Source: a virus
Taxonomy: Duplodnaviria; Heunggongvirae; Uroviricota; Caudoviricetes
Virus record (IMG/VR): IMGVR_UViG_3300024341_000001
Length of the DNA: 64,000 nt
Direction: 5' to 3' (one strand)
Under the pieces are notes generated by a model that searched no databases, had not been told where the DNA came from, and saw only the letters and a list, made by a program, of their open reading frames with translations. This document shows positions 2,473-53,351 of this stretch, one piece after another (positions within the stretch are counted from its first letter, which is position 1; every line of letters starts with the position of its first letter). The position numbers and the translations under genes are program-made.

Positions 2473-2563
2473 CGGAGAGTACAGGATTCGAACCTGTGGC
2501 CAGTCTTTCGACTGGCGACGGTTTAGCAAACCGTTAGTTTAAACCGGACTCACTCAACTCTCC
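2473..2563 (-). tRNA. tRNA-Ser(GCT)
   Basis: Cloverleaf, loop TTGCTAA, long variable arm, G73. Confidence 0.95.
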
Positions 2564-2992
2564 TTATTGATAATCCTTTGTTTGTATAATACCAAATTTA
2601 TGGAAATATCGCAATGGTCTCCATTTATGGCCATTAACATAAAATCCCCATTTATGATAAGGTCGTCCACATAGTAATAATGTCCATGCACCACCTTTTG
2701 GTATATCCAGATAATGCTTTTTTAACGCAGTAGATTTCCAAATTGAAAAGGCTTTTACATTGAAACTACCTTCTGGTGTGACATTAGTATAATGACCTTT
2801 TAATACTATCGATATGAAATTACATGCATGATCATGAAAGAATCTCCTGTCATCAGATTTCATCCAATGGTGTAATCGTACAGAATATCCAAATATTAAT
2901 AATGTCCATCTATGTAAATATGGACAGTCAGGATATCCTAATTTTTCTTTCCATCTTATTTGGAATAAACGAAATTTTCGGTAGGGTTTCAT
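2564..2992 (-). CDS. Cupin-like phage protein
   Basis: LHHWMKSDDRRFFHDH motif typical of phage cupin-fold proteins. Confidence 0.6.
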   Translation of the reverse strand: MKPYRKFRLFQIRWKEKLGYPDCPYLHRWTLLIFGYSVRLHHWMKSDDRRFFHDHACNFISIVLKGHYTNVTPEGSFNVKAFSIWKSTALKKHYLDIPKGGAWTLLLCGRPYHKWGFYVNGHKWRPLRYFHKFGIIQTKDYQ

Positions 2993-2993
2993 T

Positions 2994-3069
2994 GTCCACG
3001 GAACAGGACTCGAACCATGTAGTCTCTGACAGGTAATGCCAGTATCTTGCCAATTAAACGATCCGTGGA
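2994..3069 (-). tRNA. Atypical or degenerate tRNA, anticodon TAC
   Basis: Acceptor TCCACGGA/TCCGTGGA, anticodon stem CTGGC/GTCAG, loop ATTACCT (C37), bulged T-stem. Confidence 0.5.
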
Positions 3070-3177
3070 TACGACGTTTTTAACAGTCAAGCTGCAGGAA
3101 ACGTCGACAACCCGGAGGGATTACTCCCCGCCGCCACCTAGTTTTAATAAACTAGGAAACAACAAATTCTTATACCA

Positions 3178-3807
3178 TTACTTTATTTTGTGCAACAAAA
3201 AATGCTTCCAATCCGCATGTCGTACTTCACGAATCAAAGAACTTATAGCAACAGGCCTGGGCTTGGCAGGTTGTTTTATTAACTTTAAACCTACTTCTTT
3301 ATTTAATCTATTACCTTTTTTAAAGTTAATATCTTTATGTGTTAATACCATATTGTCCCAAGTATGTTTACCACCTTTCGATACTGGCACAACATGATCT
3401 ATCGACATCTCAGCGGGAGCGAGTTTCCTTCCGGTGTATTGATCAGTAAATTCATCTCGTTCTTGGATCTGACGTGTGGTAGGATAAGTACCATATGCAA
3501 TAATAGGCATGGCGTCAAAATGTCTTGCTATAAGAACCGTTGGTGCCCGCACAGTAATACTTGGTGAATGCAGTGGTATGTCCCATGGTCGTACGGGTAA
3601 TTGTATCCAATTATCCCATGTAACAGGATTCATACTTATAGGCTTATCGAGATCTGGTTGACCTTCAACAAGTTCATATTGAATGTCAAGTGCATAACAG
3701 TTTATGTCAGCACATAAATCTACAACAGCCTTAGCGATCGTAGAAAATCCTACGGGCATCCAAGATCTATTTAACTTTAATACTAAAATTTTGTCCATTA
3801 TTGACAT
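3178..3807 (-). CDS. HNH endonuclease (McrA-like)
   Basis: SIDHVVPVSKGGKHTWDNMV...INFKKGN and N-terminal VLKLNRSWMP. Confidence 0.9.
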   Translation of the reverse strand: MSIMDKILVLKLNRSWMPVGFSTIAKAVVDLCADINCYALDIQYELVEGQPDLDKPISMNPVTWDNWIQLPVRPWDIPLHSPSITVRAPTVLIARHFDAMPIIAYGTYPTTRQIQERDEFTDQYTGRKLAPAEMSIDHVVPVSKGGKHTWDNMVLTHKDINFKKGNRLNKEVGLKLIKQPAKPRPVAISSLIREVRHADWKHFLLHKIK

Positions 3808-3823
3808 ATGATTTCTCCTTTCG

Positions 3824-3905: not shown

Positions 3906-3919
3906 AATAAATATATAAA

Positions 3920-4558: not shown

Positions 4559-4594
4559 ATTGTTCCTTATATAATGATTATTGTTCGCTATTTA

Positions 4595-5389
4595 TTAAAG
4601 TGTTTTAAATTGTTCTTTTATCATCTTCGCAAATGACGTGAATACTGGCGAAGATGATAAATCTGTTTGCCAGGCCAACCCATTTTCTACAAGATCATAA
4701 GTATGTTTAATATAAGCTCCTGGTATTGCTTTGTTGTTTTCATCACGATCGCGCCCCATTAACCACAGAATATCGGAGACTTTAATAGCTGCCCGATGAT
4801 CGTGTGTGATTACTATAATGGTATTTAATTCATGTAGGTTTGCGACTTCGGTTATTAATGTACAGATTTCATCTATCATTAAAGGATCAAGTCCAGAAAA
4901 GGGTTCATCCATCAATAAAAAATGTTCGCTACATAGTAATTGTTGTATGATGGCTATTCGTTGCCGCTGTCCTCCAGATAACTGTGATGGGTATAAATGT
5001 GTCTGTGCTTTTAAATCAAACCGCTCCAGAAATATACGTGCTTTTTCAGGAGTATCCTTTCTATTTCGCCCAGCCAACAGTAAATTGGAAATAACTGTGC
5101 GATGTGCGAAGAGAGGATAGTTCTGAGCTACGACGCCAACACTGCCGGGGGTTACTTCTATATTTTTCTCAGTGATACGAACTGTTCCTGTCGTGGGCTT
5201 CTGCAGACCAGATAGTATACGAAATAGTTGAGTTTTGCCTATTCCTGATGGGCCCAATAATCCTACAACTTGCCCATGTCCGACGTTATTTTTAATTTCG
5301 CCGTTTACATTTTTGAGAATCTGTCGATTGCCGTATGTTAAAGAAACGTTTTCTATACGAAGCAAAGTTTCTTTTGTTATCCGTTTCAT
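4595..5389 (-). CDS. ABC transporter ATP-binding protein (NitT/TauT type)
   Basis: GPSGIGKT, LSGGQRQR, LLMDEPF; start at 5389 overlaps the permease stop. Confidence 0.95.
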   Translation of the reverse strand: MKRITKETLLRIENVSLTYGNRQILKNVNGEIKNNVGHGQVVGLLGPSGIGKTQLFRILSGLQKPTTGTVRITEKNIEVTPGSVGVVAQNYPLFAHRTVISNLLLAGRNRKDTPEKARIFLERFDLKAQTHLYPSQLSGGQRQRIAIIQQLLCSEHFLLMDEPFSGLDPLMIDEICTLITEVANLHELNTIIVITHDHRAAIKVSDILWLMGRDRDENNKAIPGAYIKHTYDLVENGLAWQTDLSSSPVFTSFAKMIKEQFKTL

Positions 5390-6171
5390 GTTCTTTCCCT
5401 CGTAATAAATGCGTATGGACAAATAGTTTTATTTAGAGCACCGATAGCATAATCAATAAATAAACCTAATACAAAGATAGTTATTTGAATAGCAAAAATA
5501 TCTGCTAATTCAAAATGTTTGTTACTATCAAGTAAAAATTTACCTACACCGCCCTCGGATCTAGCAACTCCTTCAACCATAGTAAGCATCATCCATCCCA
5601 TAGCAAAGTTTTGTTGTAATACCTCGATTGCATCGCTAGCGCGCCCCAAAACAATGATTTCAAATACTGCGCGCCATTCGTTCATTTGTAATGTACGTGC
5701 ATAGTCGAACTCACTTTTTGGAATTGCTTCTATAACCGCCATCATTGAAGTGACGAAAAACACGGACATACCAAATACTTCCAACATCAATTTAAGTTGG
5801 TGCCCACCACTAGCGATTAACGTAAATAAAAATGTAAAACCAACTAGTCCTAAAAAACGACCTTTTGTCACAAACATTGCTATAGGTCTGAAAAAAGGCA
5901 TTACTGTTGCATATGTCAATCCTAATGAAACGATCAATGTAATACCTATCGCTTGCAAACATAAAATAAAACTTGTGATAAGTTCTTGCCCGAAACCATT
6001 GTACCATATCTTGCTAAAGCTAGCTAAAACTTCTAATGGTTTAGGAACCACGTATGAGGGCCAAATCCACCATACTGCAACAGCTATGGCAAGTTGAATT
6101 GCTGCCATAGAAGTCATAATTGATTTGGACATAACCTTGTTTGGTGAAAACATTTCCAATGTAAGGTTCAT
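5386..6171 (-). CDS. ABC transporter permease (NitT/TauT type)
   Basis: Multiple TM segments, PKPLEV and EFDYARTLQM EAA-like loop. Confidence 0.9.
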   Translation of the reverse strand: MNLTLEMFSPNKVMSKSIMTSMAAIQLAIAVAVWWIWPSYVVPKPLEVLASFSKIWYNGFGQELITSFILCLQAIGITLIVSLGLTYATVMPFFRPIAMFVTKGRFLGLVGFTFLFTLIASGGHQLKLMLEVFGMSVFFVTSMMAVIEAIPKSEFDYARTLQMNEWRAVFEIIVLGRASDAIEVLQQNFAMGWMMLTMVEGVARSEGGVGKFLLDSNKHFELADIFAIQITIFVLGLFIDYAIGALNKTICPYAFITRERT

Positions 6172-6189
6172 TTTATTCCTTGAATTAGA

Positions 6190-6216
6190 GCAACCGCCAG
6201 GATTACTGACGGTTGC
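6190..6216 (-). terminator. Intercistronic stem-loop after the binding-protein gene
   Basis: GCAACCGTCAG-TAATC-CTGGCGGTTGC hairpin with no U tract; may stabilise mRNA rather than terminate. Confidence 0.5.
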
Positions 6217-6240
6217 CCGAAATTTTTGATTACTTGTGAA

Positions 6241-8031
6241 TTACTCTGTGCCAGTTACTATTTCGACACGTCTGTTTTTGGCACGTCCTGTCTCTGTATC
6301 ATTGTCAGCCACTGGCCGGGTTTGACCGTGTGCAACAATATTTAATCGACCTTCCGGGAATAAATCTTGGTATTTCCCTTCAAGCCAATACTGTACAGCT
6401 TGTGCGCGATCTGCCGATAAACGCATATTTCCTTCAGGAGTACCAGTATTATCAGTATGTCCATGAATTACAGCTTTCAATGACAAGCTGACCGCAAGCT
6501 CATCTTTTAATGCTTCGAGAGTGTTCTCTTGGCCTGCACGTATAGCTGATCTACCGATTTCGAATTGAATACTATATTTACGTTTGCCGACAACTTCTTT
6601 TAAGGTACTTCCCTTTTTGAACGTAAAACGATCTGCCGTAGAGGTATTTGTGTTGGTTTCTTTTGCAACAGCTAATACATACGAACCATCGATAGCGATT
6701 TCTGGCGCTGGTACGCTTGGTACAAGTTTTGGATATTGCTGAATTACAACATTACCAAATGCGACGTAGGTAGATTTAAATAATCCCGAAGGACCAAACA
6801 AAAGTACCATATCTGCAATATTGTTTGGTTTTGAACCGCCTAATTGCACTACTGAACCGTGTTTATTTAGTTCTTCTGTACCATCATGATATCGTAACCA
6901 GTATTCAGCATCCTTCTCCTTATATACACTGGCCGAGATTTCTGCTGCGCGTTGTTTTGCGGCATCGTATCTTTTTATTTGATCTCCGGCTTCGCCAATA
7001 GCTCGAAGCATTCCTTCAACCATTTTACGATTGTCTTTGCACCACACATCGATCCCAATAATAGCATTTGGCATTTGCCCCGCATATTCACGTGTGCTTA
7101 CGATATTTATGATATCTTGGTCGCATTGTTCGACGACATTCACATCACCAGGAGTCCAAGTAACTGTACCTTGAACTTTGATACGTTGTGTTTTTCCAGT
7201 TTTCTTGCCATTAATAACTACTGGACGATCTTCTTCATATCCCGCAATTAATTTAGCTGGCGCATCTAAAAAGTCATTAGCAGCAACCCAATTTACAGCA
7301 TTAGGATCGTAAGTGGTTTCATCAGGATTATTTGGAATGCCGTTGTCACCAGTATATTTCATTGCAATATTCCAGTCGCCATCTCGTAGATAACCGGATA
7401 TGACACAACCGCGCATAGACCCAGGATTCTTTTTCCACTCCGGTGGCCCCATCAATTTATCTTCACCATAAGAATAACCGGCTGAACCTATGACTTTAGC
7501 ACGATATTCAGTGCCGAGTTTTTCTAGTACTGGATTGAGTGCGGCTATAAATTGTGCAGCACCATCTCCCATTACAGCAACAAATGCAGGTTTTTCTGAT
7601 GGATATGGATTTCCGTCTTTGAGCTCAGTTGCAAATGCCACTAGGTCTGCCTTCATTTTTTCACAATCATCTTGTCGCTCTAGTGTAATATTAACCCCGT
7701 ACTTTTCCATAAGCGACCCCGATGTGGTAACAATACCACCATTGGCAAGCATCAGAGAAAACTGTGAATTCCAGGCCATTATTTCATACTTGAAAGTTGT
7801 GTTTGTAGCAGGTGCTGGGTCTGCCGACGGAAGCGGAAGTTCCGCTGCAATACTTTTTGTATTTGCAATATTTCCCAGATTTACCCTTTTTGCTACAACT
7901 GCCTTGGCGGGTTCTTTGCCGGGAATATATTGGTTAAGAGGTCCAAAAAATAACAAATAGAATAATGTTCCAACTATTGCCATAATAATAAGCAGCCTTC
8001 CGGCTGGGCGTATTCCGGTTCCTTCGTTCAT
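6241..8031 (-). CDS. ABC substrate-binding protein fused to C-terminal OmpA domain
   Basis: N-terminal TM, PBP2-like core, OmpA motifs GHTDNTG..NMRLSADRA..V and GRAKNRRVEI. Confidence 0.9.
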   Translation of the reverse strand: MNEGTGIRPAGRLLIIMAIVGTLFYLLFFGPLNQYIPGKEPAKAVVAKRVNLGNIANTKSIAAELPLPSADPAPATNTTFKYEIMAWNSQFSLMLANGGIVTTSGSLMEKYGVNITLERQDDCEKMKADLVAFATELKDGNPYPSEKPAFVAVMGDGAAQFIAALNPVLEKLGTEYRAKVIGSAGYSYGEDKLMGPPEWKKNPGSMRGCVISGYLRDGDWNIAMKYTGDNGIPNNPDETTYDPNAVNWVAANDFLDAPAKLIAGYEEDRPVVINGKKTGKTQRIKVQGTVTWTPGDVNVVEQCDQDIINIVSTREYAGQMPNAIIGIDVWCKDNRKMVEGMLRAIGEAGDQIKRYDAAKQRAAEISASVYKEKDAEYWLRYHDGTEELNKHGSVVQLGGSKPNNIADMVLLFGPSGLFKSTYVAFGNVVIQQYPKLVPSVPAPEIAIDGSYVLAVAKETNTNTSTADRFTFKKGSTLKEVVGKRKYSIQFEIGRSAIRAGQENTLEALKDELAVSLSLKAVIHGHTDNTGTPEGNMRLSADRAQAVQYWLEGKYQDLFPEGRLNIVAHGQTRPVADNDTETGRAKNRRVEIVTGTE

Positions 8032-17294: not shown

Positions 17295-17381
17295 CGGAGA
17301 GTTAGGGATTCGAACCCCAGACGGACATAATGCCGCGCGCAATTTTCAAGATTGGTTCCTCGACCAAACCGGACACTCTCC
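17295..17381 (-). tRNA. tRNA-Ser(TGA)
   Basis: Loop CTTGAAA, long variable arm. Confidence 0.93.
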
Positions 17382-17392
17382 AAGAAAGCCAA

Positions 17393-17545: not shown

Positions 17546-18756
17546 TCTTCAACCACGCATTCTGTGTGTATTTTATCTGGTCGTAGTCGCTGAATTATTC
17601 CAAACTGTAATTTTCCAGAATCTTGAATATCCTGATATTCAGCTTCGATTACAAAGTTCTTTTTTACTTTACCAGAATTTAGATCCTTTGTAAGTTGTGC
17701 TAGTTCATCGTGAGTTAGTTTACCAGGGCCGACATATCCACGATCGATAATGGTGCCTTTGGAGTCGTATTGTGCCACAGCAAACTTCGCATAAAAATTG
17801 GCGTGTTTTCCGGATTTTCCCTTAAGCCATTCTGTGACAAAAAAGTCATCAGTTTTGAGAAATTTGTATTTATAACTTCCCGCTCGATGTGCTTCTCCAT
17901 CCATTGTATAAGAGATATATGATTTCTCACCTGGCACACGAAGGACAAAACCCTCCCAATTTTCTTCTTCGGCAAATTGAAGTAGCTCCTTCCAATCTGT
18001 GTATATGGGGGGCACGTTGATATTGATAGATTTGAGTAATTCGAATCGTTTAGTATATTCTCTATTTCCGACAAAATCTCCTTTGAAGAATAGGACATCG
18101 AAGGGGATACAGTTGAATTGTCCATCTTTTGATAACTCGTTATAACGCGATATAGCCTCCGCAGCATCATCTTTACGAACAACCTGCGCTACATGTCTAG
18201 GCGATTCACGTTTTGTTGTGTTGTTATAATATATAAATTCGGTTAATAAAAACGTTTCACTTGGTAGTATAGCCAATAATTTTTTTATAGGCGGTAACTG
18301 TATTAATACGTCTGTACGATCTTCCATACGACGTGAAAATACTTTTTCGGTAGTTTTGCCTTTAACCAAGAATAAGCAATGCCCATCGAATTTTCTTTGT
18401 CCATACGTATTTTTACCATCAATAATTGATTGTGGTGTTTTAGATATAGGTTTATTAGGACAAAATGCTTCTGGTATATTATCCAGATCAATAACAGTTT
18501 GCACTATTGATGAGGTAACTGAAGGCATCTTTGTATCGTAACCTTCTTTTTTCTTAATTACGATCTTGGCTTCCATCTCTGCCAATGCCTGCTCTGCAGG
18601 TGTAGTTTCATTAGCTTTACCGATATTCATTCCCACACATACCTTCACAGTTTCTTGCTGTTTACCGTTTAATTGCCCCCAACGAGTATAGAATTTTTCT
18701 TTTACAGTCCAGAATTCTAATACTTTAATTTTTCCTGTTTTGCTTTTTTGGTACAA
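17542..18756 (-). CDS. lig: ATP-dependent DNA ligase with N-terminal WGR-like region
   Basis: KFDGH motif I, TEF, FDVL, EGFVLR, KYK; OB-fold C-terminus. Confidence 0.85.
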   Translation of the reverse strand: MYQKSKTGKIKVLEFWTVKEKFYTRWGQLNGKQQETVKVCVGMNIGKANETTPAEQALAEMEAKIVIKKKEGYDTKMPSVTSSIVQTVIDLDNIPEAFCPNKPISKTPQSIIDGKNTYGQRKFDGHCLFLVKGKTTEKVFSRRMEDRTDVLIQLPPIKKLLAILPSETFLLTEFIYYNNTTKRESPRHVAQVVRKDDAAEAISRYNELSKDGQFNCIPFDVLFFKGDFVGNREYTKRFELLKSININVPPIYTDWKELLQFAEEENWEGFVLRVPGEKSYISYTMDGEAHRAGSYKYKFLKTDDFFVTEWLKGKSGKHANFYAKFAVAQYDSKGTIIDRGYVGPGKLTHDELAQLTKDLNSGKVKKNFVIEAEYQDIQDSGKLQFGIIQRLRPDKIHTECVVEE

Positions 18757-18758
18757 AG

Positions 18759-18941
18759 TTAATTTTTTAATCCGAGCACCTTATTAGTTAGATTTGTCAT
18801 ACAAATTGAACAAATATTACAATAAACAGGTATATAAGCATCATTAGTGCAAAGTACAAATTTTTCATTTTTTATTATCTTTGCTTGACATTTATGACAA
18901 TGTCTGGTATTATCTGCTTTTTCTACTGTTATTTTTCTCAT
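18759..18941 (-). CDS. Small Zn-finger-like protein
   Basis: CHKC...CSIC. Confidence 0.5.
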   Translation of the reverse strand: MRKITVEKADNTRHCHKCQAKIIKNEKFVLCTNDAYIPVYCNICSICMTNLTNKVLGLKN

Positions 18942-19369: not shown

Positions 19370-19378
19370 ATAATTATC

Positions 19379-19942
19379 TTATACCAAACTTATTATAGCA
19401 ATAACTAATATCCAAGCAATAATTCCACCTTTATATAATTCAACGGTATCACCAACCTCTCCGCCGAAAAATTTCATCCAATAACTAGGTATTTTTAACT
19501 TTCCGATTTGGCGCGTTCTTGGTAACCAAGGCATATATTTTGGTAAACGAAATCCTAGAATGTGAATAACTTCTCGAGAGCGCCACCAACTTTCCGGTAA
19601 TTTTATCCAACGAGAAAACAAAAAGAACATTAAGTCTTCAACCCCCGCATAGAATAAAAATACCGTACATAGAAACATTACAAGCGATACAAATGTATAA
19701 CCACTCCAGAATATTAACATTAATGCGACTTCAGCAAACCAAAATATAAATTGGCCCACAGATATATTCTCTGATGCAGTGTTTTTTAGTATTAATGTAT
19801 CTTCTTCAACGTCGGGAGGTAAAAACGGTAATGTATCCATTATTGCTTCCCAATATAATAATTCTTTTTTAGCCATTTGCCACAAGTCAAAAAGTGAAAT
19901 AGCTATAAACTGTAGTATTTGAAATAGTAATTGTGCTATCAT
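19379..19942 (-). CDS. Hypothetical membrane protein
   Basis: Several hydrophobic segments. Confidence 0.6.
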   Translation of the reverse strand: MIAQLLFQILQFIAISLFDLWQMAKKELLYWEAIMDTLPFLPPDVEEDTLILKNTASENISVGQFIFWFAEVALMLIFWSGYTFVSLVMFLCTVFLFYAGVEDLMFFLFSRWIKLPESWWRSREVIHILGFRLPKYMPWLPRTRQIGKLKIPSYWMKFFGGEVGDTVELYKGGIIAWILVIAIISLV

Positions 19943-20096: not shown

Positions 20097-20540
20097 GGAG
20101 GTGTTACATCGTGGACTACATTTTGGGCATGGGCAACTTATACCGTGTACACAGGGAGTCCCATCTAGTTTCATACCAGTACCATGACATTCTGTACATT
20201 GGTCGTGCATGCATGGCTGCCAATGTGTATGTTTTTGAATATTTTCCAAATGTTGTTTTTGGATTCGTCTTAAGTTTTCTTCGTATTGTTCTTTATTCAT
20301 ATCGATCCTTAGTTGTAGTAGGGATCCTAGCCAATCCCCCACACAGGCGGGAATTAATAGCCAAGGGTCACTTACATATGATATAACAATTACCGCGCCA
20401 AGCAAATATAATACTGAACCGGAGCTTGCCGCTTGTAGTTGTTTTTTTAAAGTTTGCGCATGTGCTGTGCGTCGTATATAATATGAATATAAAAAGCCGA
20501 GCACAAATGCTGCGAGAAATACATATATTATTTGAACCAT
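20082..20540 (-). CDS. Membrane domain plus Cys-rich domain hypothetical protein
   Basis: TM N-terminus then CMHDQCTECHGTG...CPCPKC; may be two fused small genes. Confidence 0.5.
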   Translation of the reverse strand: MVQIIYVFLAAFVLGFLYSYYIRRTAHAQTLKKQLQAASSGSVLYLLGAVIVISYVSDPWLLIPACVGDWLGSLLQLRIDMNKEQYEENLRRIQKQHLENIQKHTHWQPCMHDQCTECHGTGMKLDGTPCVHGISCPCPKCSPRCNTSTLVT

Positions 20541-21009: not shown

Positions 21010-21381
21010 TTAGTGAGATTGTCCATCTATAACTGGAAACAAATCAAATATACGCATACCATGTGATTCGAAAGGTATATTAAAATCTTTACAAGCAAGT
21101 CGTATTCGTTCTACTCCAAGTGGATTCCACGAAATACAACAAACTTTTTGTATTGACTTACCTGCTTTGCCATATTCGGTTATTAAATGAGAACCATCAT
21201 GACAACTATCTCCAAGATCATGATCCATGTAAATAATGTCATATACATTTTTCTGAATTAATTTCAACGCATCTTCAAATGTTGTGGCTACATGAATATT
21301 GGTGCGGTTTAAATCAAACCACTCCGGTTGTTTTTCATCATCAACAAATAAAATCATTTTTTCGTATAACCCATGGATCAC
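21010..21381 (-). CDS. Stand-alone receiver-like domain (cyclic-phosphate-processing type)
   Basis: ILFVDDE...TTFEDA...IYMDHDLG. Confidence 0.65.
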   Translation of the reverse strand: MIHGLYEKMILFVDDEKQPEWFDLNRTNIHVATTFEDALKLIQKNVYDIIYMDHDLGDSCHDGSHLITEYGKAGKSIQKVCCISWNPLGVERIRLACKDFNIPFESHGMRIFDLFPVIDGQSH

Positions 21382-21844: not shown

Positions 21845-22278
21845 ATTTGTACTCCTAGTTCGTCTCTAAGTAAAAAGTTCTTTGCAGTTATTAACTCATT
21901 GGGCACAGAATATTTATTTTGTAAATATTCCCGTTCTAGCATTTTATATCTATGCAATAGTTCCATAGCATCGCTATGACGTTTTCGCGCGTCCTTTATT
22001 GAAGACAGAGAATCTTGCACAAGAATAAACGCGTGTAGTTTAGTAACTAGTTCTTTTTCGTTTAGAGAATATGTTATTCTTTTTCCAAAACACTTTTTAT
22101 CACATTCTTGCCAATTTATCGGTGCTGTTGGATATCGTTCTTCCACTCCTATACGTATAAATCCTGCAGGTAAATGTATTTCAATATTAAATGGTTTTAA
22201 ACTCAAATGAAGTCCTAAACTGATAAAATACCATTTTGTATACCGAAAATAACAAACAAATTCTAATTTTTTATCCAT
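21832..22278 (-). CDS. Hypothetical protein
   Basis: 148-aa ORF. Confidence 0.55.
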   Translation of the reverse strand: MDKKLEFVCYFRYTKWYFISLGLHLSLKPFNIEIHLPAGFIRIGVEERYPTAPINWQECDKKCFGKRITYSLNEKELVTKLHAFILVQDSLSSIKDARKRHSDAMELLHRYKMLEREYLQNKYSVPNELITAKNFLLRDELGVQICQT

Positions 22279-22490
22279 TTGTTCTTCTCATAGTGCCAGT
22301 TTGCAATAACATTATCATCAATACCTATTGCCTGAATCAAACAACCTTCTTGTATTATCAGGTGCGGATCTAATTGTTCAAATTCTTGTTGTGTGCGACA
22401 TTTGTAATACAAACCCCAATCACATTTTAATTCATATCTGATTGCATTATATGGTAATTCAGTTGGAAAATGAAAAACGATGGATCTCAT
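22263..22490 (-). CDS. Hypothetical protein
   Basis: 75-aa ORF. Confidence 0.5.
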   Translation of the reverse strand: MRSIVFHFPTELPYNAIRYELKCDWGLYYKCRTQQEFEQLDPHLIIQEGCLIQAIGIDDNVIANWHYEKNKWIKN

Positions 22491-22723
22491 CTTTGTCCTG
22501 GTCTAGAATCATCACATACCGAAATTACATATTTCGACCCATGATATAATTCTTGTACTTTATGTATAACAACAGTCACATTGTTTGCATATAATTTTCT
22601 CGCAATCTCGAATGGATCTTCGTCAGTCTGGAATTCTGTGCGTACGGGATAACCGCTGCGATTTAACACTGATTCCTCTTCCTGGGAACCATACCACCAA
22701 TTTAAATATATTGTGTAGGTCAT
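22487..22723 (-). CDS. Hypothetical protein
   Basis: Start revised to MTYTIYL (ATGA overlap). Confidence 0.5.
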   Translation of the reverse strand: MTYTIYLNWWYGSQEEESVLNRSGYPVRTEFQTDEDPFEIARKLYANNVTVVIHKVQELYHGSKYVISVCDDSRPGQR

Positions 22724-22971
22724 ACTGGAAATTGTCCTTGTATTTGTCCACAATTTAGACAATAAATAAATGTTACGTTATCACCATCCCCCATTAAACC
22801 TACATCCCTTGGTGGGTAACTTTCAAAACTACTAAACTCGTTTACAGTTTCGTAAGAGTCTTGATACGTAATAAAGAAACACATGTCTTTACATCTTGCC
22901 GAAATATATGCAAGTTTAACCTCATTACATCGTTTGCATGGCTGCTGCAATGCTTTTTTTATTGTTTCCAT
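22720..22971 (-). CDS. Cys-rich hypothetical protein
   Basis: CKRC...CLNCGQIQG; start revised to avoid tRNA-Gly. Confidence 0.55.
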   Translation of the reverse strand: METIKKALQQPCKRCNEVKLAYISARCKDMCFFITYQDSYETVNEFSSFESYPPRDVGLMGDGDNVTFIYCLNCGQIQGQFPV

Positions 22972-31160: not shown

Positions 31161-31637
31161 TCATGCCAAATCCAATTGCAAAAATACTCTAGTTGTCATT
31201 AATAACGTACCCAGAATATTATACTTGTATTGAGTTTTGCAGTAATCACACGTACATGCTCCCCAGTAATTATCATGCCAAGTATTACCTTCTTCAAGAA
31301 AAAGATTACCCGTCGCTATTAACTTTTTTCGTAATTCGGGGTAATTAGTGAACTTGGCCGCCAACAACTGGGCCATAACAGTTTGTTTTATAAGTTCCCA
31401 ATCAGGACGACGATCAACTATTCGTCCTAACTGTTTTGCTTTACCCGGAGTCGGTGCAACTCGAATTTCTTCGCGCTGCGCAGGATTCAATGTTTTGGCC
31501 GCCTGAAAAGCATGTTCAACCGTAGGATATTCAGCGCCATCATATGTGATGGGGGCTGGATAGAAATTTGATAAGAATTCCCACTCGTCCTTAAAACTTG
31601 TTATCGAATACAAATTTTGTTGCTCCTTCGTGTCCAT
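31161..31637 (-). CDS. NADAR (YbiA-like) ADP-ribose hydrolase
   Basis: FLSNFY...PTVEHAFQAAK...AKF...EGNTWHDNYWG. Confidence 0.9.
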   Translation of the reverse strand: MDTKEQQNLYSITSFKDEWEFLSNFYPAPITYDGAEYPTVEHAFQAAKTLNPAQREEIRVAPTPGKAKQLGRIVDRRPDWELIKQTVMAQLLAAKFTNYPELRKKLIATGNLFLEEGNTWHDNYWGACTCDYCKTQYKYNILGTLLMTTRVFLQLDLA

Positions 31638-33522: not shown

Positions 33523-34008
33523 TTAACAGGCTAAGTTTATATTCAGATACTCAGAGTCGCCAGTTACATATAAAAAACTGCCGAAGCGCCCCAATTCAGT
33601 GTCTGAGTAATTATCTGCTTCCTCTTCCGTAGCAAACTCTATTTCTCCAGTGATCAATGGCCATTTCCTCGAATGTTGATATACATCTAATTCTAATATA
33701 AGACCAGATTCCAGTGGAAAGTGATAACGTGTTTTGTAAACACGTCGACCAATTGTTAAGGGCCAAATTGCAATAAACACATTTTCATCTATTTGACATT
33801 GTGCTTCGTCCCGAACTACACCCATTCCTAATTTATAATTTATTTTATAATCTTTTGTATTATCTTCATGTACTCGTTGAGTAAACCTAATCCCATCTAT
33901 TGTATAACCCTGCATTAATTTTATTGATTTACTAGCTTGAGCCAGCTGTGGAAGCACAACATTCTCATCAAAGAACAAAAATTTATATTCAATTTCTTTT
34001 GGTATCAT
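33523..34008 (-). CDS. CYTH (triphosphate tunnel) domain protein
   Basis: EIEYKF, QGY, KTRY, ELDVY, EIEF. Confidence 0.85.
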   Translation of the reverse strand: MIPKEIEYKFLFFDENVVLPQLAQASKSIKLMQGYTIDGIRFTQRVHEDNTKDYKINYKLGMGVVRDEAQCQIDENVFIAIWPLTIGRRVYKTRYHFPLESGLILELDVYQHSRKWPLITGEIEFATEEEADNYSDTELGRFGSFLYVTGDSEYLNINLAC

Positions 34009-34565
34009 CCAAATTCAGCCCCTTCTTCATAACCTCGTTGTTCATTTTTTCCTATATTGAATATTTGATCTTTTCCTGCACGTACTCGTTTGGCATATCT
34101 ATCATATAAAGTAAGATAAACAGCCGCTGCCAAGTTTGTGCAATGTTTCGTGGGTATAGTGACAATTCGATGGCAGTGTTGCATATGTACTCGTTCAATA
34201 CCACCATCTTCTGGACCAAAAACATACACTGCATTATATGGATGTTCAAAGTCTAATAAGTTTTCAGAGTTTTCTCGCACTTCAATTGCAATAGGAATTG
34301 CTTTTTCAAACATATCAAACGGATAATCAAATTGTGTGAGTGTAACTTCTTTATAACCCTTCATCCGTTCTTCTCTTGGTAAACGATAATCTTTTGTTGG
34401 TGTCATTGATACACGATTGCCGGTGTACCAAACCTGGGCTATACCAAAACAAGATGCAGCACGTATTATTGCGCCAACGTTTCTTGGATATTTAGGATTA
34501 ATTAGTACGATCGAAGGAGTTACCCCGATCTTCTTATGGTTTTTACCGCAGATTAGTTGTTCCAT
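34005..34565 (-). CDS. SpoU/TrmH-family RNA methyltransferase
   Basis: PKYPRNVGAIIR, YVFGPEDGG, NLAAAV. Confidence 0.88.
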   Translation of the reverse strand: MEQLICGKNHKKIGVTPSIVLINPKYPRNVGAIIRAASCFGIAQVWYTGNRVSMTPTKDYRLPREERMKGYKEVTLTQFDYPFDMFEKAIPIAIEVRENSENLLDFEHPYNAVYVFGPEDGGIERVHMQHCHRIVTIPTKHCTNLAAAVYLTLYDRYAKRVRAGKDQIFNIGKNEQRGYEEGAEFG

Positions 34566-35173
34566 TAACTATTTATTATCTTATCTGCTAGATTATCTGA
34601 ATATAAAGCATGTACTTTATTTAACCACTGCAATGTCTTAGCTTTTGCCATATTGTAGTGCGTCCCCTCCCCATCTTTGCCGACGACTCCTTCAAAAGTG
34701 ATTCCTTCTATTTCATTATAATAGATCTTAGTGGTAAATTCTTTATTCCAGCGATAATATCCAAGATATTTTGGTATCAGTACTTTACCGTCAAATAATT
34801 TTATGAACATCTTAGGAGATACGAATCCTTTTTTATCTAAGGCCACATCAAACACCGTCAGTGTCTTCACATCATCTTTTTCATGTTGTCCAGCAAAACT
34901 TCTTTTCCCAGCAAATTCTGCAAACACTACCGCATGTTCAAATCGGTTATCAATCATAATTTGGGTAAGCGGGAATAACAACGTTTCGTGAAATAAAGGA
35001 ACTGCTGATCCAAATACGTCATCTGATTGGTCAAATAATCTTGTGCGCGTACCGAATTTAAACCAACCACGTTTTTTGCTGTATTCAAAACGTAAGTTAC
35101 TACCATCTATTTTATCGAACACGTGTGCATTAAAAGATGGCACATCTTTAGGAATTTCTGGATATTGTTTCAT
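34565..35173 (-). CDS. ATP-dependent RNA ligase (Rnl2-like)
   Basis: KIDGSN motif I, FGTR, FAEF, FDV, EGVVGK. Confidence 0.8.
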   Translation of the reverse strand: MKQYPEIPKDVPSFNAHVFDKIDGSNLRFEYSKKRGWFKFGTRTRLFDQSDDVFGSAVPLFHETLLFPLTQIMIDNRFEHAVVFAEFAGKRSFAGQHEKDDVKTLTVFDVALDKKGFVSPKMFIKLFDGKVLIPKYLGYYRWNKEFTTKIYYNEIEGITFEGVVGKDGEGTHYNMAKAKTLQWLNKVHALYSDNLADKIINS

Positions 35174-37482: not shown

Positions 37483-38149
37483 TTACCATTTACCCTTTAT
37501 CCACGCTTTCAGATCGCGTCGCTCGTTTGTTCTATGGTCAATCCATAAATTATGTTTTACCATATAAGTACGAATTTTTTCTGCTCGATGTCCCGACCCC
37601 ATCTGCAATCGTTTATTTTGGGCCGCTTGTTTTTGATGATTATATTTAGCGATACGTTGTAACTTAGAATATAATATTTCAAAAGCAAGTTGTTTGTTTT
37701 GGTACTGGGATCTTTCGGAACCGCAACGAACAGTTAACCCTGATTTATGTTTTAATACAACAACTGTTTCAACTTTATTACGATTCTGTCCTCCAGGACC
37801 GCTTCCTTTAGTGGTTGTAACTTCAACGTCATTAAAATTTATACTGACCTCGGGAAGTTCTATAAGATCCAACACTGCAACTGTTACAACAGAGGTATGT
37901 GTTCGTCCTCGGTTTTCTGTAGGAGGAACTCTGTGCCATTGGTGCGCACCACCCTCGTTTTCAAATAATTCCTTTGCTCTTTGTCCGATAACCTGAACTG
38001 AAGCAAACCCATCACTAACATATATTGGAATTGCCTCAAAGTCCGTGTTTATACGCGACTTTTAAATAAATACTTAATTGATCCTCGACGAGGAGTTTTG
38101 CATCCGCTCCACCCTCGCCAGCTTGTAATTCCAATAAAATGTTACTCAT
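37483..38149 (-). CDS. Class I release-factor homolog (PrfH-like size, PxT and GGQ) needing a +1 frameshift at CTT-TGA
   Basis: Frame 1: MSNILLELQAGEGGADAK...HGL then TGA (38036-38038). The +1 frame continues EAIP...EGGAHQWHRVPPTENRGRTHTS...GPGGQNRNK...RSQYQNK; about 221 aa joined. Confidence 0.85.
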
Positions 38150-38371: not shown

Positions 38372-38503
38372 GCGGGTAATTTAAGCGACGTCAGTGTTTT
38401 TAATTTAGCTACTACGTATTTTCATACGCGCTAGGACTTGAACCTAGAGTGTTATATTTTTGAGATATATGCTTTAACCGATAACTAACATCTATCGACC
38501 CGC
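38372..38503 (-). ncRNA. tRNA-like element (CAA loop) with expanded acceptor region
   Basis: TATAT-CTCAAAA-ATATA arm, T-arm CTAGG-TTCAAGT-CCTAG, ends GCGGGT/ACCCGC, about 50-nt insert after the T-arm. Confidence 0.45.
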
Positions 38504-38678: not shown

Positions 38679-38752
38679 TGGAGACAACCGGAATCGAACC
38701 AGTGCATACCCAGGTCTTCAGCCTAGAGCTCTACCGACTGAGCTATGTCTCC
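38679..38752 (-). tRNA. tRNA-Phe(GAA)
   Basis: Loop CTGAAGA. Confidence 0.94.
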
Positions 38753-39630: not shown

Positions 39631-39634
39631 ATTT

Positions 39635-39901
39635 ATTACCGAGCTTACCCAGCTTTTTGTTTTATCCCGTCATTTCTCTATTGGCCTCTACCCGACCGTT
39701 ATTAGACAAGAAGCGTGCCGTCCTGGGTCTGTTTGAGTTGCATACTTGCTGGTGGTGCGAACGAATAATGTGATGGCTTTGAATTACGTTCGGAAAGATA
39801 GCCACAAACTTCCTCAGTATATCTTGGTCACATTCTTCTCCCACTCGCTTCTTTGTATGAGCTGAAGTTCCTCACCGTGGTGTAACGGGTTCTCTTGTAA
39901 T
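39635..39901 (-). ncRNA. rnpB: RNase P RNA (type A-like catalytic domain, divergent specificity domain)
   Basis: P2 CCCGTTA/TGACGGG; P3 then GAGGAA; P4 ACT[T]CAGCT/AGCTGGGT with bulged U; P5 CATAC/GTATG-CAA; P6 AAGAAGCG/CGCTTCTT; L15 GGGTA; AGAGAAATGA and AAAACAAAA linkers. Confidence 0.85.
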
Positions 39902-48388: not shown

Positions 48389-48718
48389 TTATATTAAAAT
48401 ATCTTGAAATCCTAAATACTCATTTATTTTTAAAACTACCTGATCCACCATCTGAAGGTTCTGCAAGTTTTCACAGAATTCCAACTTCACTGGTTTCTTG
48501 TGGGTTAATGCAACGCTTATTAAGTTCTTTAATACCGGCGCCTGAACATCTTTACCAACTGCTATATGAAGATAGGTATTGCCAAGATGCACAATAATGG
48601 TGTCTGACGATGATGTATATTCGTATACTTTGCCGACACGTTTGCCAATCAACTTTTTGTAGTCGTCGGAATGTTGCCCAAGTGAATAAACCGATTTAAA
48701 GAATGTTTTATATATCAT
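48389..48718 (-). CDS. Hypothetical protein
   Basis: 109-aa ORF. Confidence 0.55.
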   Translation of the reverse strand: MIYKTFFKSVYSLGQHSDDYKKLIGKRVGKVYEYTSSSDTIIVHLGNTYLHIAVGKDVQAPVLKNLISVALTHKKPVKLEFCENLQNLQMVDQVVLKINEYLGFQDILI

Positions 48719-49464
48719 GTCAATTCTAAGGGGGCATCAAATGGAGCAATATGAAATTTATTTTCAAGTGTTGCAAATTTCTTCATAAAATGCTCCTTAA
48801 CTTTTTCGGGCGAATTAGTCCTTGGACTTATATGACCAATAACTATTCCCTTTGTCTTAGTCAAATCAAACTCAGATAAAAATTCTAAAGCCTGTGATGT
48901 ACTAAGGTGACCAAAGTTGGAGCTAATACGATCCTTTAATAATTGGTCGTATCCGTCGTAAGTTGCCAATAATTCATCGTCATAATCGCATTCGATGAAA
49001 AAGGCGTTACAATGTTTTGTACGTTCTCGCATAGTTTTGCTGATGCTGCCAGTATCGGTTAAATAGCAGAGAAACGTATTTGTAGCGGGCTCTTCAATTA
49101 TAAAACCCAGTGCAAACTTTGCGTCGTGTTTTGTTGAAAAAGGTTTAACTATCAAAGATTTAATTTGCAGTACAGATGTCTCATTTATATATTTGATTTC
49201 ACAATCATTTAAATCTGTTTCTTTTGCTTTGAAAACAGCTTCATGAATATATATAGGAACTTTGGTTTTACGCCCAACAGGGCCTGCGCCAACAATATGA
49301 TCGCTATGTTCGTGAGAAATAAACAGGGCGCTGAATTCCTTGTGCCCTGTTTTCTCAAAAACCCTTTTTGCCGATATACCGCAATCGATTAAGATGCGTG
49401 TATTATCGTTATAAATTAATGTGCAGTTCCCGGAACTCGAGGAACCCACAGGTAATATTTTCAT
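48715..49464 (-). CDS. Metallo-beta-lactamase-fold nuclease (YycJ/PhnP-like)
   Basis: GSSSSGN, IDCG, SHEHSDH, HD, TDTG, GHLS. Confidence 0.9.
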   Translation of the reverse strand: MKILPVGSSSSGNCTLIYNDNTRILIDCGISAKRVFEKTGHKEFSALFISHEHSDHIVGAGPVGRKTKVPIYIHEAVFKAKETDLNDCEIKYINETSVLQIKSLIVKPFSTKHDAKFALGFIIEEPATNTFLCYLTDTGSISKTMRERTKHCNAFFIECDYDDELLATYDGYDQLLKDRISSNFGHLSTSQALEFLSEFDLTKTKGIVIGHISPRTNSPEKVKEHFMKKFATLENKFHIAPFDAPLELT

Positions 49465-50204: not shown

Positions 50205-50627
50205 TTATAATTCTACTCCTGCTCTTTTTAATAAGTCAAAGCTATGTTTTTGGTCGTCTTTAGGATACATAGAATTCGAAGTTAATCGTAATTCTTCCCA
50301 TCTAACCTTACCATCATCAATTAATTTTTTTATGTTGCGTTGTGTACGATTTAGTCCTGACGCTCCAGTTTTAATTTCTAAAAATATTATTGCATTATCG
50401 TCAAATACAATATAATCTACAGGCATCCCTAAAAAATGAGCTCTTTTTGGATCATATTGAAAATGTTTCAGATACGGAACCAAATGTTCGGCTATTTGTC
50501 CCAGGCGGACTTCTGATGCTTTCTTTTGTCGATATATCTTTAAATATTGCACCCTGTAAAAGAATGCCGTATAAATTAAGGCAATAATTAACGTTGTAAC
50601 AATAATTATGATATAGGTGTTAAACAT
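50205..50627 (-). CDS. Holliday-junction-resolvase-like PD-(D/E)xK endonuclease with N-terminal TM
   Basis: GQIAEHLVP...FLGMPVDYIVF...FLEIKTG. Confidence 0.8.
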   Translation of the reverse strand: MFNTYIIIIVTTLIIALIYTAFFYRVQYLKIYRQKKASEVRLGQIAEHLVPYLKHFQYDPKRAHFLGMPVDYIVFDDNAIIFLEIKTGASGLNRTQRNIKKLIDDGKVRWEELRLTSNSMYPKDDQKHSFDLLKRAGVEL

Positions 50628-51687
50628 TTGATAATTCTTTTTCGATTTTGGTTTTTAACAATTCTATCTTATCATTTGACGGTGGAACCATGGTACCACG
50701 TCTATCCGCTTCTCGCACTTTTATAAGTTGATATATGTTTTCTTTGCCGACTCTTTTAATTAGACGACGCACGCCCTTTACGGTTAACTTCGGGTCCGCG
50801 TCAAACATATGATTCTCTATTAATATCTTTACAGTTTGTATTAGAGACGGCGGTAATTTATATTTTGTCATGTATGTTACAGCGAGCTCGGCGCCTACAA
50901 ATTCGTGTTTGAAAAAATGCATTTTACCATCGGAAGTAATATCCATAGTAGTTGGTTTTGCCATATCATGAAATAACATAGTCCATCTGATTTCTTCTTC
51001 AAGTGCTGCCGCATTTATAGCCAACAATATGTGTTCAAATACATTGATGCCTTCGCCCCGACGTGTTTGACGAATATTGTTACAACGTGCTAACTCTGGA
51101 AAAATATATTGTAGTACGTTGGTCTCTAACATCAAACGAAAACCATGCCCCGGATTTTTTGACATAATTATTTGTTGCAATTGTTTTCCAATATATGCTG
51201 GGTTGCTCTTTACTACATTCTTGATCAATCGTGAATGTTCGTACATTGTTACCCACGTTGGGACATCTACGGCAAAAGAGGTTTGCGCAGCAATGCGACA
51301 TATCCGTAATAACTCTTCGGGGTAATCGAGAAATGTGGAGGTATTGGCACGAATGAGTTTATTCTTTAAATCATCGGCGCGAAATACCTTGCCATCCAGA
51401 CTGAGAATAGCATTGTTTATCGATATAGGATCAAATGGTACACTATCTATACTATTCAAAAAATACAATTCATATGTTGTGTCACCGTCACTTATCTGCA
51501 GTGTTGGTTTTGTTCTGTGCAATGTATAGTTATCTAACAATGGAATTACCTGTTCGCGGGTTACTCCAATTATAGCTAACTTATAATACTGCACTTTTAT
51601 TTTTAATGCTGTTGCCCAAACACATTCACCAAATAAGTAGATCGTGGCCCCTAGTTTTTCAATAGCAAAGATTAAGTTGTTATCCAT
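50620..51687 (-). CDS. CCA-enzyme paralog with degenerate nucleotidyltransferase head and intact HD domain
   Basis: PEELLRICRIAAQ body; FEH...LFHDMAKP...H..VGA...HM HD motifs; DxD and RRD motifs lost. Confidence 0.8.
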   Translation of the reverse strand: MDNNLIFAIEKLGATIYLFGECVWATALKIKVQYYKLAIIGVTREQVIPLLDNYTLHRTKPTLQISDGDTTYELYFLNSIDSVPFDPISINNAILSLDGKVFRADDLKNKLIRANTSTFLDYPEELLRICRIAAQTSFAVDVPTWVTMYEHSRLIKNVVKSNPAYIGKQLQQIIMSKNPGHGFRLMLETNVLQYIFPELARCNNIRQTRRGEGINVFEHILLAINAAALEEEIRWTMLFHDMAKPTTMDITSDGKMHFFKHEFVGAELAVTYMTKYKLPPSLIQTVKILIENHMFDADPKLTVKGVRRLIKRVGKENIYQLIKVREADRRGTMVPPSNDKIELLKTKIEKELSNV

Positions 51688-52115
51688 AAACCGGTTCTTA
51701 AGTCTTCTCGCATAGTTTCATATGTCGGTGCTTTCATAAACATATCTGGTTGCATACTTATAGAATTAAATAATCGTCGTGAATTCAATCCAATATGGCC
51801 CTCTATAATTCCTATGACATTGATAGACTGTGGTCTTGTGTAATGTACACGCATACGTATTCTTGATAAAAATACATGTGCGAGCGATGAAACTACATTT
51901 GTAATAATCATATGATGCGTATCATCATGCTGTGTACTTGGTAAGAATAACCAAAAATTATTTAAATGTACAACGGAGAAAGGCACGGAGATTTTACTGG
52001 AGTCCAATGCTGTAGCAATCTCGAGTTGTTTCGCTACATAATCAAATTTATCTCTGAATGCAAACTGAAAGCAGTCATAGTTGTCTGTCATCTGGAATGG
52101 CTGCATTGAAATCAT
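51672..52115 (-). CDS. Hypothetical protein
   Basis: 147-aa ORF. Confidence 0.55.
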   Translation of the reverse strand: MISMQPFQMTDNYDCFQFAFRDKFDYVAKQLEIATALDSSKISVPFSVVHLNNFWLFLPSTQHDDTHHMIITNVVSSLAHVFLSRIRMRVHYTRPQSINVIGIIEGHIGLNSRRLFNSISMQPDMFMKAPTYETMREDLRTGLWITT

Positions 52116-52332
52116 GGTGTATCCTATGTATAGTCACGCTGTGATTTTTAAAAACATGCGCATCACAAGTACAAATTAGATGCGTCGGTCGCTTTGGAGC
52201 TGTCGGGTTAGCTAGTGTTTCTAGTCGACATGTGCCGTGTGAAACAGTTACTTTTCTATAATATAAACAATTGCCACACGCTCTAGCGACCTGATACCCT
52301 GGCGGCGTATAATCAGTGTTTGGTAGAGACAT
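52075..52332 (-). CDS. Cys-rich hypothetical protein
   Basis: CGNC...CRL...CDAH. Confidence 0.55.
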   Translation of the reverse strand: MSLPNTDYTPPGYQVARACGNCLYYRKVTVSHGTCRLETLANPTAPKRPTHLICTCDAHVFKNHSVTIHRIHHDFNAAIPDDRQL

Positions 52333-52552
52333 GTTTAAATCCTTTATTAGTACAATATTTTTTTAGTTCTTCAATAGTACTTTGCATACTACTAAACGAA
52401 TCTCGCTTTAAAAATTCTTGGTGAAACTGAAAATCTGTCTCATCTTTTACGCTGCCGTAACTAAAATAAACGGCAAACAACTTATCTACCTGTTTGCCGG
52501 TTATCTCGTAATAAAAAACAATTCCACTTGTTAGCTTTTGTTCGTAGCGCAT
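52313..52552 (-). CDS. Hypothetical protein
   Basis: 79-aa ORF. Confidence 0.45.
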   Translation of the reverse strand: MRYEQKLTSGIVFYYEITGKQVDKLFAVYFSYGSVKDETDFQFHQEFLKRDSFSSMQSTIEELKKYCTNKGFKHVSTKH

Positions 52553-52899
52553 GATTCTAGTTCTGATGTGGCTTCGGCAGCTGTGGCTATTAATTCCGAC
52601 AATGCTTCGGAAAGTCCTAATAAATTCTGTCCGTTATTATAATATTTACAGACTTGTACTAGTTCCTCATAAAGAACCTTTATAGCGTCTAATTGATTTG
52701 CATTCTCTAGTTGTTGCGCCACCTGTTTGAAAACATATAACATTTGTTGCGTAAATACTGCTTTTGGTATATTGCTTTTGTCTTGTAATAACTCGTCAAA
52801 TCTTGCTTCGATCTTATCCGCTATTTCTTCGATAGTGCTCTCTGACGCTAAATTTGCAGTCGGATATTTTCTTAATACTTCTTTTATAATTTCAGTCAT
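52531..52899 (-). CDS. Hypothetical protein
   Basis: 122-aa ORF. Confidence 0.55.
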   Translation of the reverse strand: MTEIIKEVLRKYPTANLASESTIEEIADKIEARFDELLQDKSNIPKAVFTQQMLYVFKQVAQQLENANQLDAIKVLYEELVQVCKYYNNGQNLLGLSEALSELIATAAEATSELESCATNKS

Positions 52900-52907
52900 T
52901 TAAGTCC

Positions 52908-53351
52908 TTAAATTAATTTTCCGGTCATATGATCCAACTCATGTTGTATAATAATTGCCGGCATACCGACAAATTTATCAACGTGTGGAGTACCTTCCTC
53001 ATCCATATATGATACGGTAACGATTTCTCGACGAATACATCTTTTCTTATACCCGGGTTTTGACATACATCCTTCTTCAAACGAGAAGTATTTACCCGAT
53101 CTTTTTGCCGTTGCATTTATAAATACTTTCCAATTATCAGAAATATTTACTACAAATACATGCGGTATGGGCTCATTTTCTTTTGTCCAGATTTGATTAC
53201 TTGCCAGCCCCATACATATTTCATAGTTCTTAGCGGTGTCTATTAAATCTACTGCCAACAAGGCCGCTGGGCCCACTTCACCACGAGTAGCTGGTGTTCG
53301 TAATATCCGCAATTGTGCCTCGTTATCTGCTTTATTTATCGACACAACCAT
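52908..53351 (-). CDS. def: Peptide deformylase
   Basis: GLASNQI, EGCMS, QHELDH. Confidence 0.92.
   Translation of the reverse strand: MVVSINKADNEAQLRILRTPATRGEVGPAALLAVDLIDTAKNYEICMGLASNQIWTKENEPIPHVFVVNISDNWKVFINATAKRSGKYFSFEEGCMSKPGYKKRCIRREIVTVSYMDEEGTPHVDKFVGMPAIIIQHELDHMTGKLI

Follow-up and report, generated by a model that had tools for sequence, protein, structure and literature searches.

A 64,000-nucleotide stretch of DNA from IMG/VR virus record IMGVR_UViG_3300024341_000001 (referred to at its full length as the window) carries a dense array of tRNA genes, and between two of these we found a miniature RNase P RNA. The source record, 215,016 bp long with ends that overlap by 134 bp, represents a jumbo phage genome as a complete circular assembly; the sequencing runs listed as containing the window are DNA runs from lake-water metagenomes, with no RNA run among them. 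The minus strand carries all window genes up to ~55.9 kb, and every window feature described below lies on it unless the plus strand is named. We interpret the tRNA-rich region as a self-processing island for tRNA and mRNA expression in this 215-kb phage, a reading to which we give a probability of about 0.55. The phage RNase P RNA and the host protein RnpA would together cut long transcripts at the tRNA 5' ends, a host endonuclease would cut the 3' side near C74, and a phage CCA enzyme would finish the tRNA ends. By the same cuts the interleaved genes would yield near-leaderless mRNAs, in the manner of mitochondrial tRNA punctuation. Their protein products, namely the cREC, metallophosphoesterase, CYTH and HD proteins, an RNA ligase, a SpoU methylase, a GGQ hydrolase, a Pth2-like protein, a deformylase and NAD-salvage enzymes, would then sustain translation under host attack on tRNAs, NAD+ or ribosomes, and Pnkp and Ro60, which are encoded outside the island, would act together with them. 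The new content consists of a phage RNase P RNA family, of tRNA genes bearing C74 only in combination with a split CCA function, and of tRNA-abutting genes that lack a Shine-Dalgarno (SD) sequence. The general concept of translation autonomy and counter-defence has already been published (PMC7824862, PMC7162821).

An RNase P RNA within the tRNA array

The RNase P RNA occupies positions 39634-39901, between tRNA-Glu(CTC) and tRNA-Glu(TTC). Its parts are P1-P4, a P6 pseudoknot and P15/P16/P17 with the internal loop AAACA/GGGUA, and one long stem replaces the specificity domain (S-domain). The stretch separating the two tRNA-Glu genes is kept in a close relative, where its ends are nearly invariant and its centre is variable, and a third copy came from a metagenome contig, while a 15-mer scan returned chance matches for the most part; in three related phages the RNA lies between two tRNAs. 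In the close relative L011, an 82-aa open reading frame (ORF; L011 1948-2200) stands between tRNA-Glu(CTC) and the RNase P RNA and starts 3 nt after the tRNA. The window, unlike L011, has no ORF at this place.

A hand-drawn RNase P-type structure that included the P4 and P6 pseudoknots was first tested on three sequences. In these, 97% of cells were paired and 15 pairs were compensated, compared with 30-43% and 0-3 for slid partners. A covariance model built from those three sequences, with P4 left out of the model, recovered three further homologues over their full length, one in a 326-kb phage and the others in records of 259 kb (L196) and 123 kb (L194). The family comprises the window copy and five homologues in other phages, representing at least four phage lineages, and all members fit one RNase P-type structure. 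Over the six sequences, 94.6% of cells were paired and 34 of 60 pairs showed compensatory changes, whereas pairing in slid controls was 31-47%. Compensatory pairs were found in P1 (6/8), P2 (4/7) and the P4 pseudoknot (6/8), the last of which had not been fitted. P4 was 95.8% paired, and its 8 bp and bulged U are fixed while the sequence differs in each lineage. Pairing reached 100% in P1, P2, P3, P15 and P16 and 85% in P6, which has 4 covarying pairs, and the GGU-bearing loop of P15/P16 reads GGGUA.

Members of the family are also recognized by known models. RF00010 (bacterial class A) matches the L194 copy end to end at 72 bits (E 2e-20; threshold 100), in an alignment that leaves out the S-domain, ~110 model positions, and RF02357 (truncated type T) matches the L196 copy at 37 bits (E 9e-5; threshold 60). 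Where the specificity domain P7-P14 with its T-loop-binding modules would be expected, we found a single variable stem of ~30-110 nt. The motifs and their order agree with those of real E. coli M1 RNA. An earlier note on this DNA, made from the letters and translated ORFs, had listed an RNase P RNA among its components, and the six-sequence covariation and the Rfam matches to family members bear this out. We conclude from these findings that 39634-39901 is a phage-borne RNase P RNA poor in S-domain.

Few ribozymes are universal, and RNase P RNA is among them. A naturally minimised copy from a virus would offer a compact model of the catalytic core, and would mean that phages take over tRNA 5' maturation besides tRNA supply. 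No report of a phage-encoded RNase P RNA was found in the literature, which is absence of evidence only; neither PMC7824862 nor PMC7162821 mentions RNase P.

tRNA 3' ends, split CCA function and tRNA-gene junctions

ARAGORN detected 37 tRNAs in the window, every one of them on the minus strand, between 2472 and 39979. Rfam and folding supplied three further candidates: a plausible tRNA-Ser(UGA) at 17295-17382, a cloverleaf with a CAU anticodon at ~11610-11684 and a degenerate tRNA-like element at 38423-38495, giving a total of ~39-40. CCA is encoded by none of the 37 genes. In 36 of them C74 alone follows the discriminator directly, and Lys-CTT has CC; the three candidates likewise lack CCA, in line with the ~39 CCA-less tRNA genes counted before. 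C74 without CCA was further seen in 40 of 43 tRNAs of relatives. This residue may act as a 3'-processing signal; alternatively, the GGGUA loop of the phage RNase P RNA may be its pairing partner. The tRNA set of the window covers every amino acid except Ala, whose absence had been noted, and a single tRNA-Ala(TGC) lies outside the window at genome positions 20438-20511, adjoining the Ro60 gene. A tRNA with an amber anticodon (CTA) and an odd T-loop is encoded at 10243-10317, in a genome that carries no sign of TAG recoding. Stop-codon recoding was rejected, since TAG readthrough lengthens ORFs by only ~8%, below TGA or TAA.

The CCA function appears to be split between two proteins. The first, of 237 aa (15113-15826), is a class II CCA-type nucleotidyltransferase consisting of head and neck only. 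Its head motifs (GGSVRD..DID, RRDF and EDxxR, within class II motifs A-E) are intact, and NF009814 matches it at E 6e-39, over positions 24-210 only and below every equivalog cut-off. The protein ends after the neck and so has no body or tail, the domains with which such enzymes hold a tRNA. The second, of 355 aa (50620-51687), is a paralog with an HD domain whose degenerate head has lost the catalytic carboxylates, while the RNA-binding region of neck and body is kept and the HD domain is intact. Both proteins had been listed before as CCA enzyme and HD paralog, and the head motifs proved intact only in the former. The motifs point to an active head-only enzyme and an inactive-head/HD partner, encoded 35 kb apart. 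A NadD/NMNAT-type adenylyltransferase gene of NAD salvage (14550-15116) overlaps with its start the stop of the CCA-head gene.

Genes and tRNAs are tightly packed in the island: genes finish either within a tRNA or 0-9 nt ahead of one, and half of the tRNAs are followed by an ATG within 0-4 nt. An ATG-started ORF of at least 61 aa begins at this distance after 18 of the 37 tRNAs, where random positions give 1.4 on average and 6 at most; examples lie at 17200, 19294, 19942, 29954, 33436 and 38976. The same abutment was found at 18 of 43 tRNAs in relatives. SD-like motifs precede 3 of the 18 abutting genes versus 29 of 54 other genes. On the upstream side, 18 genes stop no more than 60 nt from a tRNA 5' end, and of these, nine stop 0-9 nt before the tRNA and five inside it. 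One such internal stop is the TAG at 38743-38745, formed by U8-A9-G10 of tRNA-Phe and conserved in L011. No report of this gene-abutting-tRNA layout in a phage was found in the literature.

Because of the ATG abutment, the upstream stops at tRNA borders and the scarcity of SD motifs, we infer that tRNA excision would also free near-leaderless mRNAs. A phage that gained its mRNAs in this way would have direct use for an RNase P RNA and a CCA enzyme of its own. More tentatively, and with somewhat less than even confidence, we propose that tRNA-rich large phages own a miniature RNase P ribozyme family that has co-evolved with C74-keeping, CCA-less pre-tRNAs and that would act as a tRNA 5'-maturase and as an mRNA-maturing enzyme yielding near-leaderless messages. 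If it is true that tRNA processing frees the abutting genes, the region would be a testable bacterial-virus case of punctuated, leaderless expression, and this would also explain why the tRNA arrays of big phages teem with small genes.

Exact GGTATAAGA boxes are present on the minus strand at 3168-3176, 12837-12845, 19377-19385, 53045-53053 and 55911-55919, one of them ~60 nt upstream of the 5' end of the tmRNA described below. The interval 19.4-53 kb is free of exact boxes, which is consistent with long transcripts spanning the array.

Repair and rescue genes, the permuted element and the tmRNA

The earlier note had joined tRNAs, RNase P RNA, CCA enzyme, repair enzymes and rescue factors into one integrated module, and every part on its list was found. 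According to this explanation the kit counters anticodon nucleases and ribotoxins: the tRNAs are spares, the enzymes heal and seal, the rescue factors relieve ribosomes, and permuted tRNA mimics serve as decoys or substrates. Published comparative work favours it in so far as tRNAs, RNA ligases, cREC, CCA enzymes and NAD salvage in jumbo phages are assigned repair or counter-attack roles (PMC7824862), and the sets of jumbo and huge phages are taken as means to supply and repair translation when the host attacks it (PMC7824862, PMC7162821). The presence of cREC, metallophosphoesterase, CYTH, ligase and SpoU genes in the island, and of a T4-type Pnkp in the genome, also speaks in its favour. We nevertheless regard it as unlikely in this integrated form, for reasons that emerge from the genes themselves.

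The receiver-like domain is a cREC (cyclic-phosphate-processing receiver) domain, encoded at 21010-21381 (PF20274, E 8.5e-12, above the cut-off). The cREC family has been linked to RNA ligase or to NAD/ADPr enzymes (PMC7824862); here the ligase, NADAR and nicotinate phosphoribosyltransferase genes are 4-14 kb from cREC, none is adjacent, and the neighbours of cREC differ in a relative. The nicotinate phosphoribosyltransferase of NAD salvage lies at 25433-26830 and the NADAR domain protein at 31161-31649. A hydrolase of the RelA/SpoT HD_4 type, similar to small alarmone hydrolases and starting at an internal Met (31591-32307), adjoins the genes for NADAR and for a calcineurin-like metallophosphoesterase (32310-32921). 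Small alarmone hydrolases of this type can undo the tRNA 3'-pyrophosphorylation caused by toxic alarmone synthetases.

The product of 33523-34008 has the N-terminal ExExK signature (EIEYK at residues 5-9), and its predicted structure suggests a CYTH tunnel fold, with Atlas matches to CYTH clusters at TM 0.85-0.87 and a feature score of 0.96; Pfam PF01928 did not match it, and a word-based homologue search returned only the protein itself. At higher coordinates come a SpoU/TrmJ/TrmL-like 2'-O-methyltransferase (34005-34565) and a small ATP-dependent RNA ligase of 202 aa with motif I KIDGSN (34565-35173; PF09414), a minimal form for which no match was found among PDB sequences. At 10603-10902, a 99-aa protein starting from an internal Met probably adopts the Pth2 peptidyl-tRNA hydrolase fold, as judged from Atlas structure matches to a phage PTH2-bearing cluster (TM 0.94) and to eukaryotic PTH2 (TM 0.83), where Pfam gave only E 0.0045. 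Peptide deformylase is encoded at 52908-53351.

What had been called a release-factor homolog is a standalone GGQ domain protein of 130 aa (37483-37875). The RF-1/GGQ domain stood up, whereas the protein corresponds to domain 3 of release factor 1 (RF1) alone, to which its best matches belong, and has no codon-reading domain. An assignment as ArfB was rejected, NF006718 giving 39.5 bits where its cut-off is 100, and covering residues 8-43 only. Together with the split CCA enzyme and the universal C74, this RF1-derived protein offers handles on phage translation under host attack.

The genome further encodes a T4-type polynucleotide kinase-phosphatase, Pnkp (AAA_33 + HAD_PNKP, E 3e-46), at genome positions 17995-18855, near the Ro60/tRNA-Ala locus, and Ro60 itself at 21990-22928. 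Both are outside the window, far from the island and ~65 kb or more from the RNA ligase, and RtcB was not found in the genome. The nearest relative keeps cREC, CYTH, metallophosphoesterase, SpoU, GGQ, HSP20, Csp and nicotinate phosphoribosyltransferase genes among its tRNAs in a changed order, and RNA ligase and HD_4 were not found in its equivalent 26 kb. Such absence, and so fluid a gene order, speak against a single module, as does the fact that a counter-defence module leaves the RNase P RNA, C74 and the ATG abutment unexplained.

Co-occurrence across other phages, the check suggested beforehand, gave a divided answer. A GGQ-type standalone protein was found no more than 10 kb from at least 3 tRNAs at 24 of 44 phage loci, compared with 1 of 117 unrelated viral loci, and most island genes are kept in the nearest relative, which lacks the ligase and HD_4. 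Within 10 kb at the 44 loci, the CCA head was seen 6 times and the ligase 5 times, and pairwise co-occurrence was sporadic. RNA ligase and cREC, used as single-protein anchors, retrieved only unrelated loci without tRNAs. Three other RNase P RNA-bearing phage records hold 14-50 tRNAs each, with an RF-1 domain gene in 3/3 and a CCA-type nucleotidyltransferase in 2/3; near the RNase P RNA, one record has a metallophosphoesterase homologue and tRNAs, and another has Pth2-like and GGQ-like genes. The parts of the proposed module exist, and the theme is met again in other phages, but Pnkp, Ro60 and tRNA-Ala are located elsewhere and no RnpA, SmpB or RtcB was found, so that describing the kit as one integrated, self-sufficient module is overstated.

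A permuted tRNA mimic, to which the earlier note had assigned the part of decoy or substrate, does exist at 25217-25417. Its order is T-arm, acceptor 3' strand, A, CC, a spacer of ~105 nt, acceptor 5' strand and D-arm, and the RNA ends emerge from a long stem on the anticodon side. A relative (L139, ~6950-7060) keeps the order of parts with a spacer of 12 nt, and the acceptor stem covaries between the two phages (GGAGAGA/UCUCUCC versus CCGGAGA/UCUCCGG), a conservation that would also suit a counter-defence element. The T-arm, D-arm, closed acceptor stem and anticodon-side termini are shared with YrlA-type Y RNA, and the phage encodes Ro60; the element differs from Y RNA in lying ~100 kb from the Ro60 gene and in having an acceptor 3' strand followed by N-CC, as in a true tRNA, and the YrlA model RF02553 gave no match there. 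By analogy, the Y-RNA-like topology and the phage Ro60 point to RNA quality control rather than to a decoy.

The transfer-messenger RNA (tmRNA) listed before is present as a split gene. Its 5' exon (12429-12774) holds the acceptor 5' strand, the tag reading frame AEEKSDMTFEQALALVEVPVAVMA*, the pseudoknot region, and the T-stem and loop up to loop position 7; a group-I-like intron of 659 nt in the T-loop (11770-12428) is followed by a 3' exon (11754-11769) made of CCCCG, CGAGUCC, A and CCA. RF00023 matches the unspliced gene at E 2e-11 without the acceptor 3' strand, which was found 659 nt downstream, and ARAGORN misses the gene while the intron is in place. After the intron had been removed in silico, ARAGORN called a complete tmRNA of 362 nt with a tag of 24 residues. 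Between the 3' exon and the 5' strand the pair G3:U70 is formed, and the gene encodes its own CCA. At the insertion site after T-loop position 7, the exon-final U pairs with a G of the intron sequence GGUCG (P1), and the final base of the intron is G. No Rfam group I model matches the catalytic core. Inside the intron, on the plus strand, lies an ORF of 148 aa for a LAGLIDADG-type homing endonuclease (11827-12273; PF00961, E 7e-4, below the cut-off; motif GIVDGEGS).

This arrangement corresponds to a known bacterial gene form, in which the tmRNA intron is group I and inserted at T-loop position 7, the -1 U pairs with a G of P1, the terminal base is G, and a minority of introns hold LAGLIDADG genes (PMC11915505). 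From the bacterial examples the gene described here differs in its location in a phage, in an intron length near the reported upper limit, in the antisense orientation of the endonuclease gene and in a genome without SmpB.

Outside these subjects, the interval 4595-8031, inside the phage early region, encodes an ABC ATPase, a permease-like protein and a 596-aa protein with a C-terminal OmpA domain. A helicase gene is split into a C-terminal ORF (53544-54110) and an N-terminal ORF (55219-55866), with a LAGLIDADG endonuclease gene (54352-55212) between them, probably by insertion of an intron or intein.

Weighing of the readings and comparison with known systems

Several results weigh against a self-processing island. 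The Rfam RNase P models gave no match on the window copy at E up to 10, even in a search space of 341 nt; a search of the entire genome with RF00010 and RF00011 was equally negative, and the single-sequence fold of the region was no better than shuffles (z +0.72). The three-sequence model, built from close, AT-rich sequences, missed E. coli rnpB in a 20-kb locus, and because of this the homology to RNase P RNA rests on intermediates. Neither an RnpA gene nor an SmpB gene was found in the genome. Two of the RNase P RNA-bearing records are labelled provirus in IMG/VR, though they have 14 and 50 tRNAs in dense arrays. A phage 3' endonuclease for tRNAs was not identified; the metallo-β-lactamase (MBL) protein at 48715-49464 gave weak, ambiguous RNase Z matches in a replication-module setting and was not adopted as RNase Z. 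Five ORFs stop inside the next tRNA, and a precise RNase P cut would remove their stop.

Least probable in our view is an accretion of independent genes, in which tRNA arrays are permissive landing sites, co-location is historical and the tRNAs mainly fit phage codon usage after host shut-off; the mixture of unrelated functions (dCMP deaminase, DNA ligase, VWA, PcfJ, HSP20, Csp and NAD salvage), the homing endonucleases at 3178 (HNH), 11827 and 54352 (LAGLIDADG), the differing gene order of close relatives and the sporadic pairing of genes agree with it, but passive accretion predicts neither the exact abutment of start codons on tRNA 3' ends nor the loss of SD, both kept in relatives, and the GGQ protein in tRNA arrays of many unrelated phages and the RNase P RNA between two tRNAs in the three related phages speak against it as well. 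We retain the self-processing island as the preferred reading.

Comparison with known systems places the region as follows. With the published sets of jumbo and huge phages (PMC7824862, PMC7162821) it shares many tRNAs, a CCA-adding enzyme, RNA ligases, cREC, phosphoesterases, NADAR and NAD salvage, release-factor-like proteins, deformylase and tmRNA. Three features of the region are not described there: genes that abut tRNA ends, a C74 that is universal, and a CCA function divided between two proteins. As in the heal-and-seal system of T4 (Pnkp with Rnl1/Rnl2), there are a T4-type kinase/HAD phosphatase and ATP-dependent RNA ligase(s). In contrast to T4, kinase, phosphatase and ligase are all encoded but unlinked, and additional end-processing enzymes (cREC, metallophosphoesterase, CYTH and HD) are present.

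The phage RNase P RNA shares with E. coli M1 RNA and RF00010 the CR-I motif GAGGAA followed by the P4 5' strand with its bulged U, and the CR-V motif ACA(A/G)AA followed by the 8-nt P4 3' strand and then A. P1-P3, the P6 pseudoknot and the P15/P16 internal loop with GGGUA are shared with bacterial type A RNA. Compared with RF00010 and RF02357, the phage family is only 200-270 nt long, its S-domain is cut to one variable stem and P18 is absent. The window copy departs further from its bacterial counterparts: its P4 is divergent, with AACUUCAGCU in place of AAAGUCCGGG, it scores under every Rfam threshold, and it is encoded by a phage whose genome is without rnpA.

Mitochondrial tRNA punctuation with leaderless mRNAs was reportedly described by Ojala, Montoya and Attardi in 1981. 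The present case differs from it in belonging to a phage of bacteria, in that only half of the junctions fit and in that the other genes keep SD. What the two share is the layout itself: coding genes directly flanked by tRNAs, start codons at or near the tRNA 3' cut, which in the phage is a predicted one, and no ribosome-binding site.

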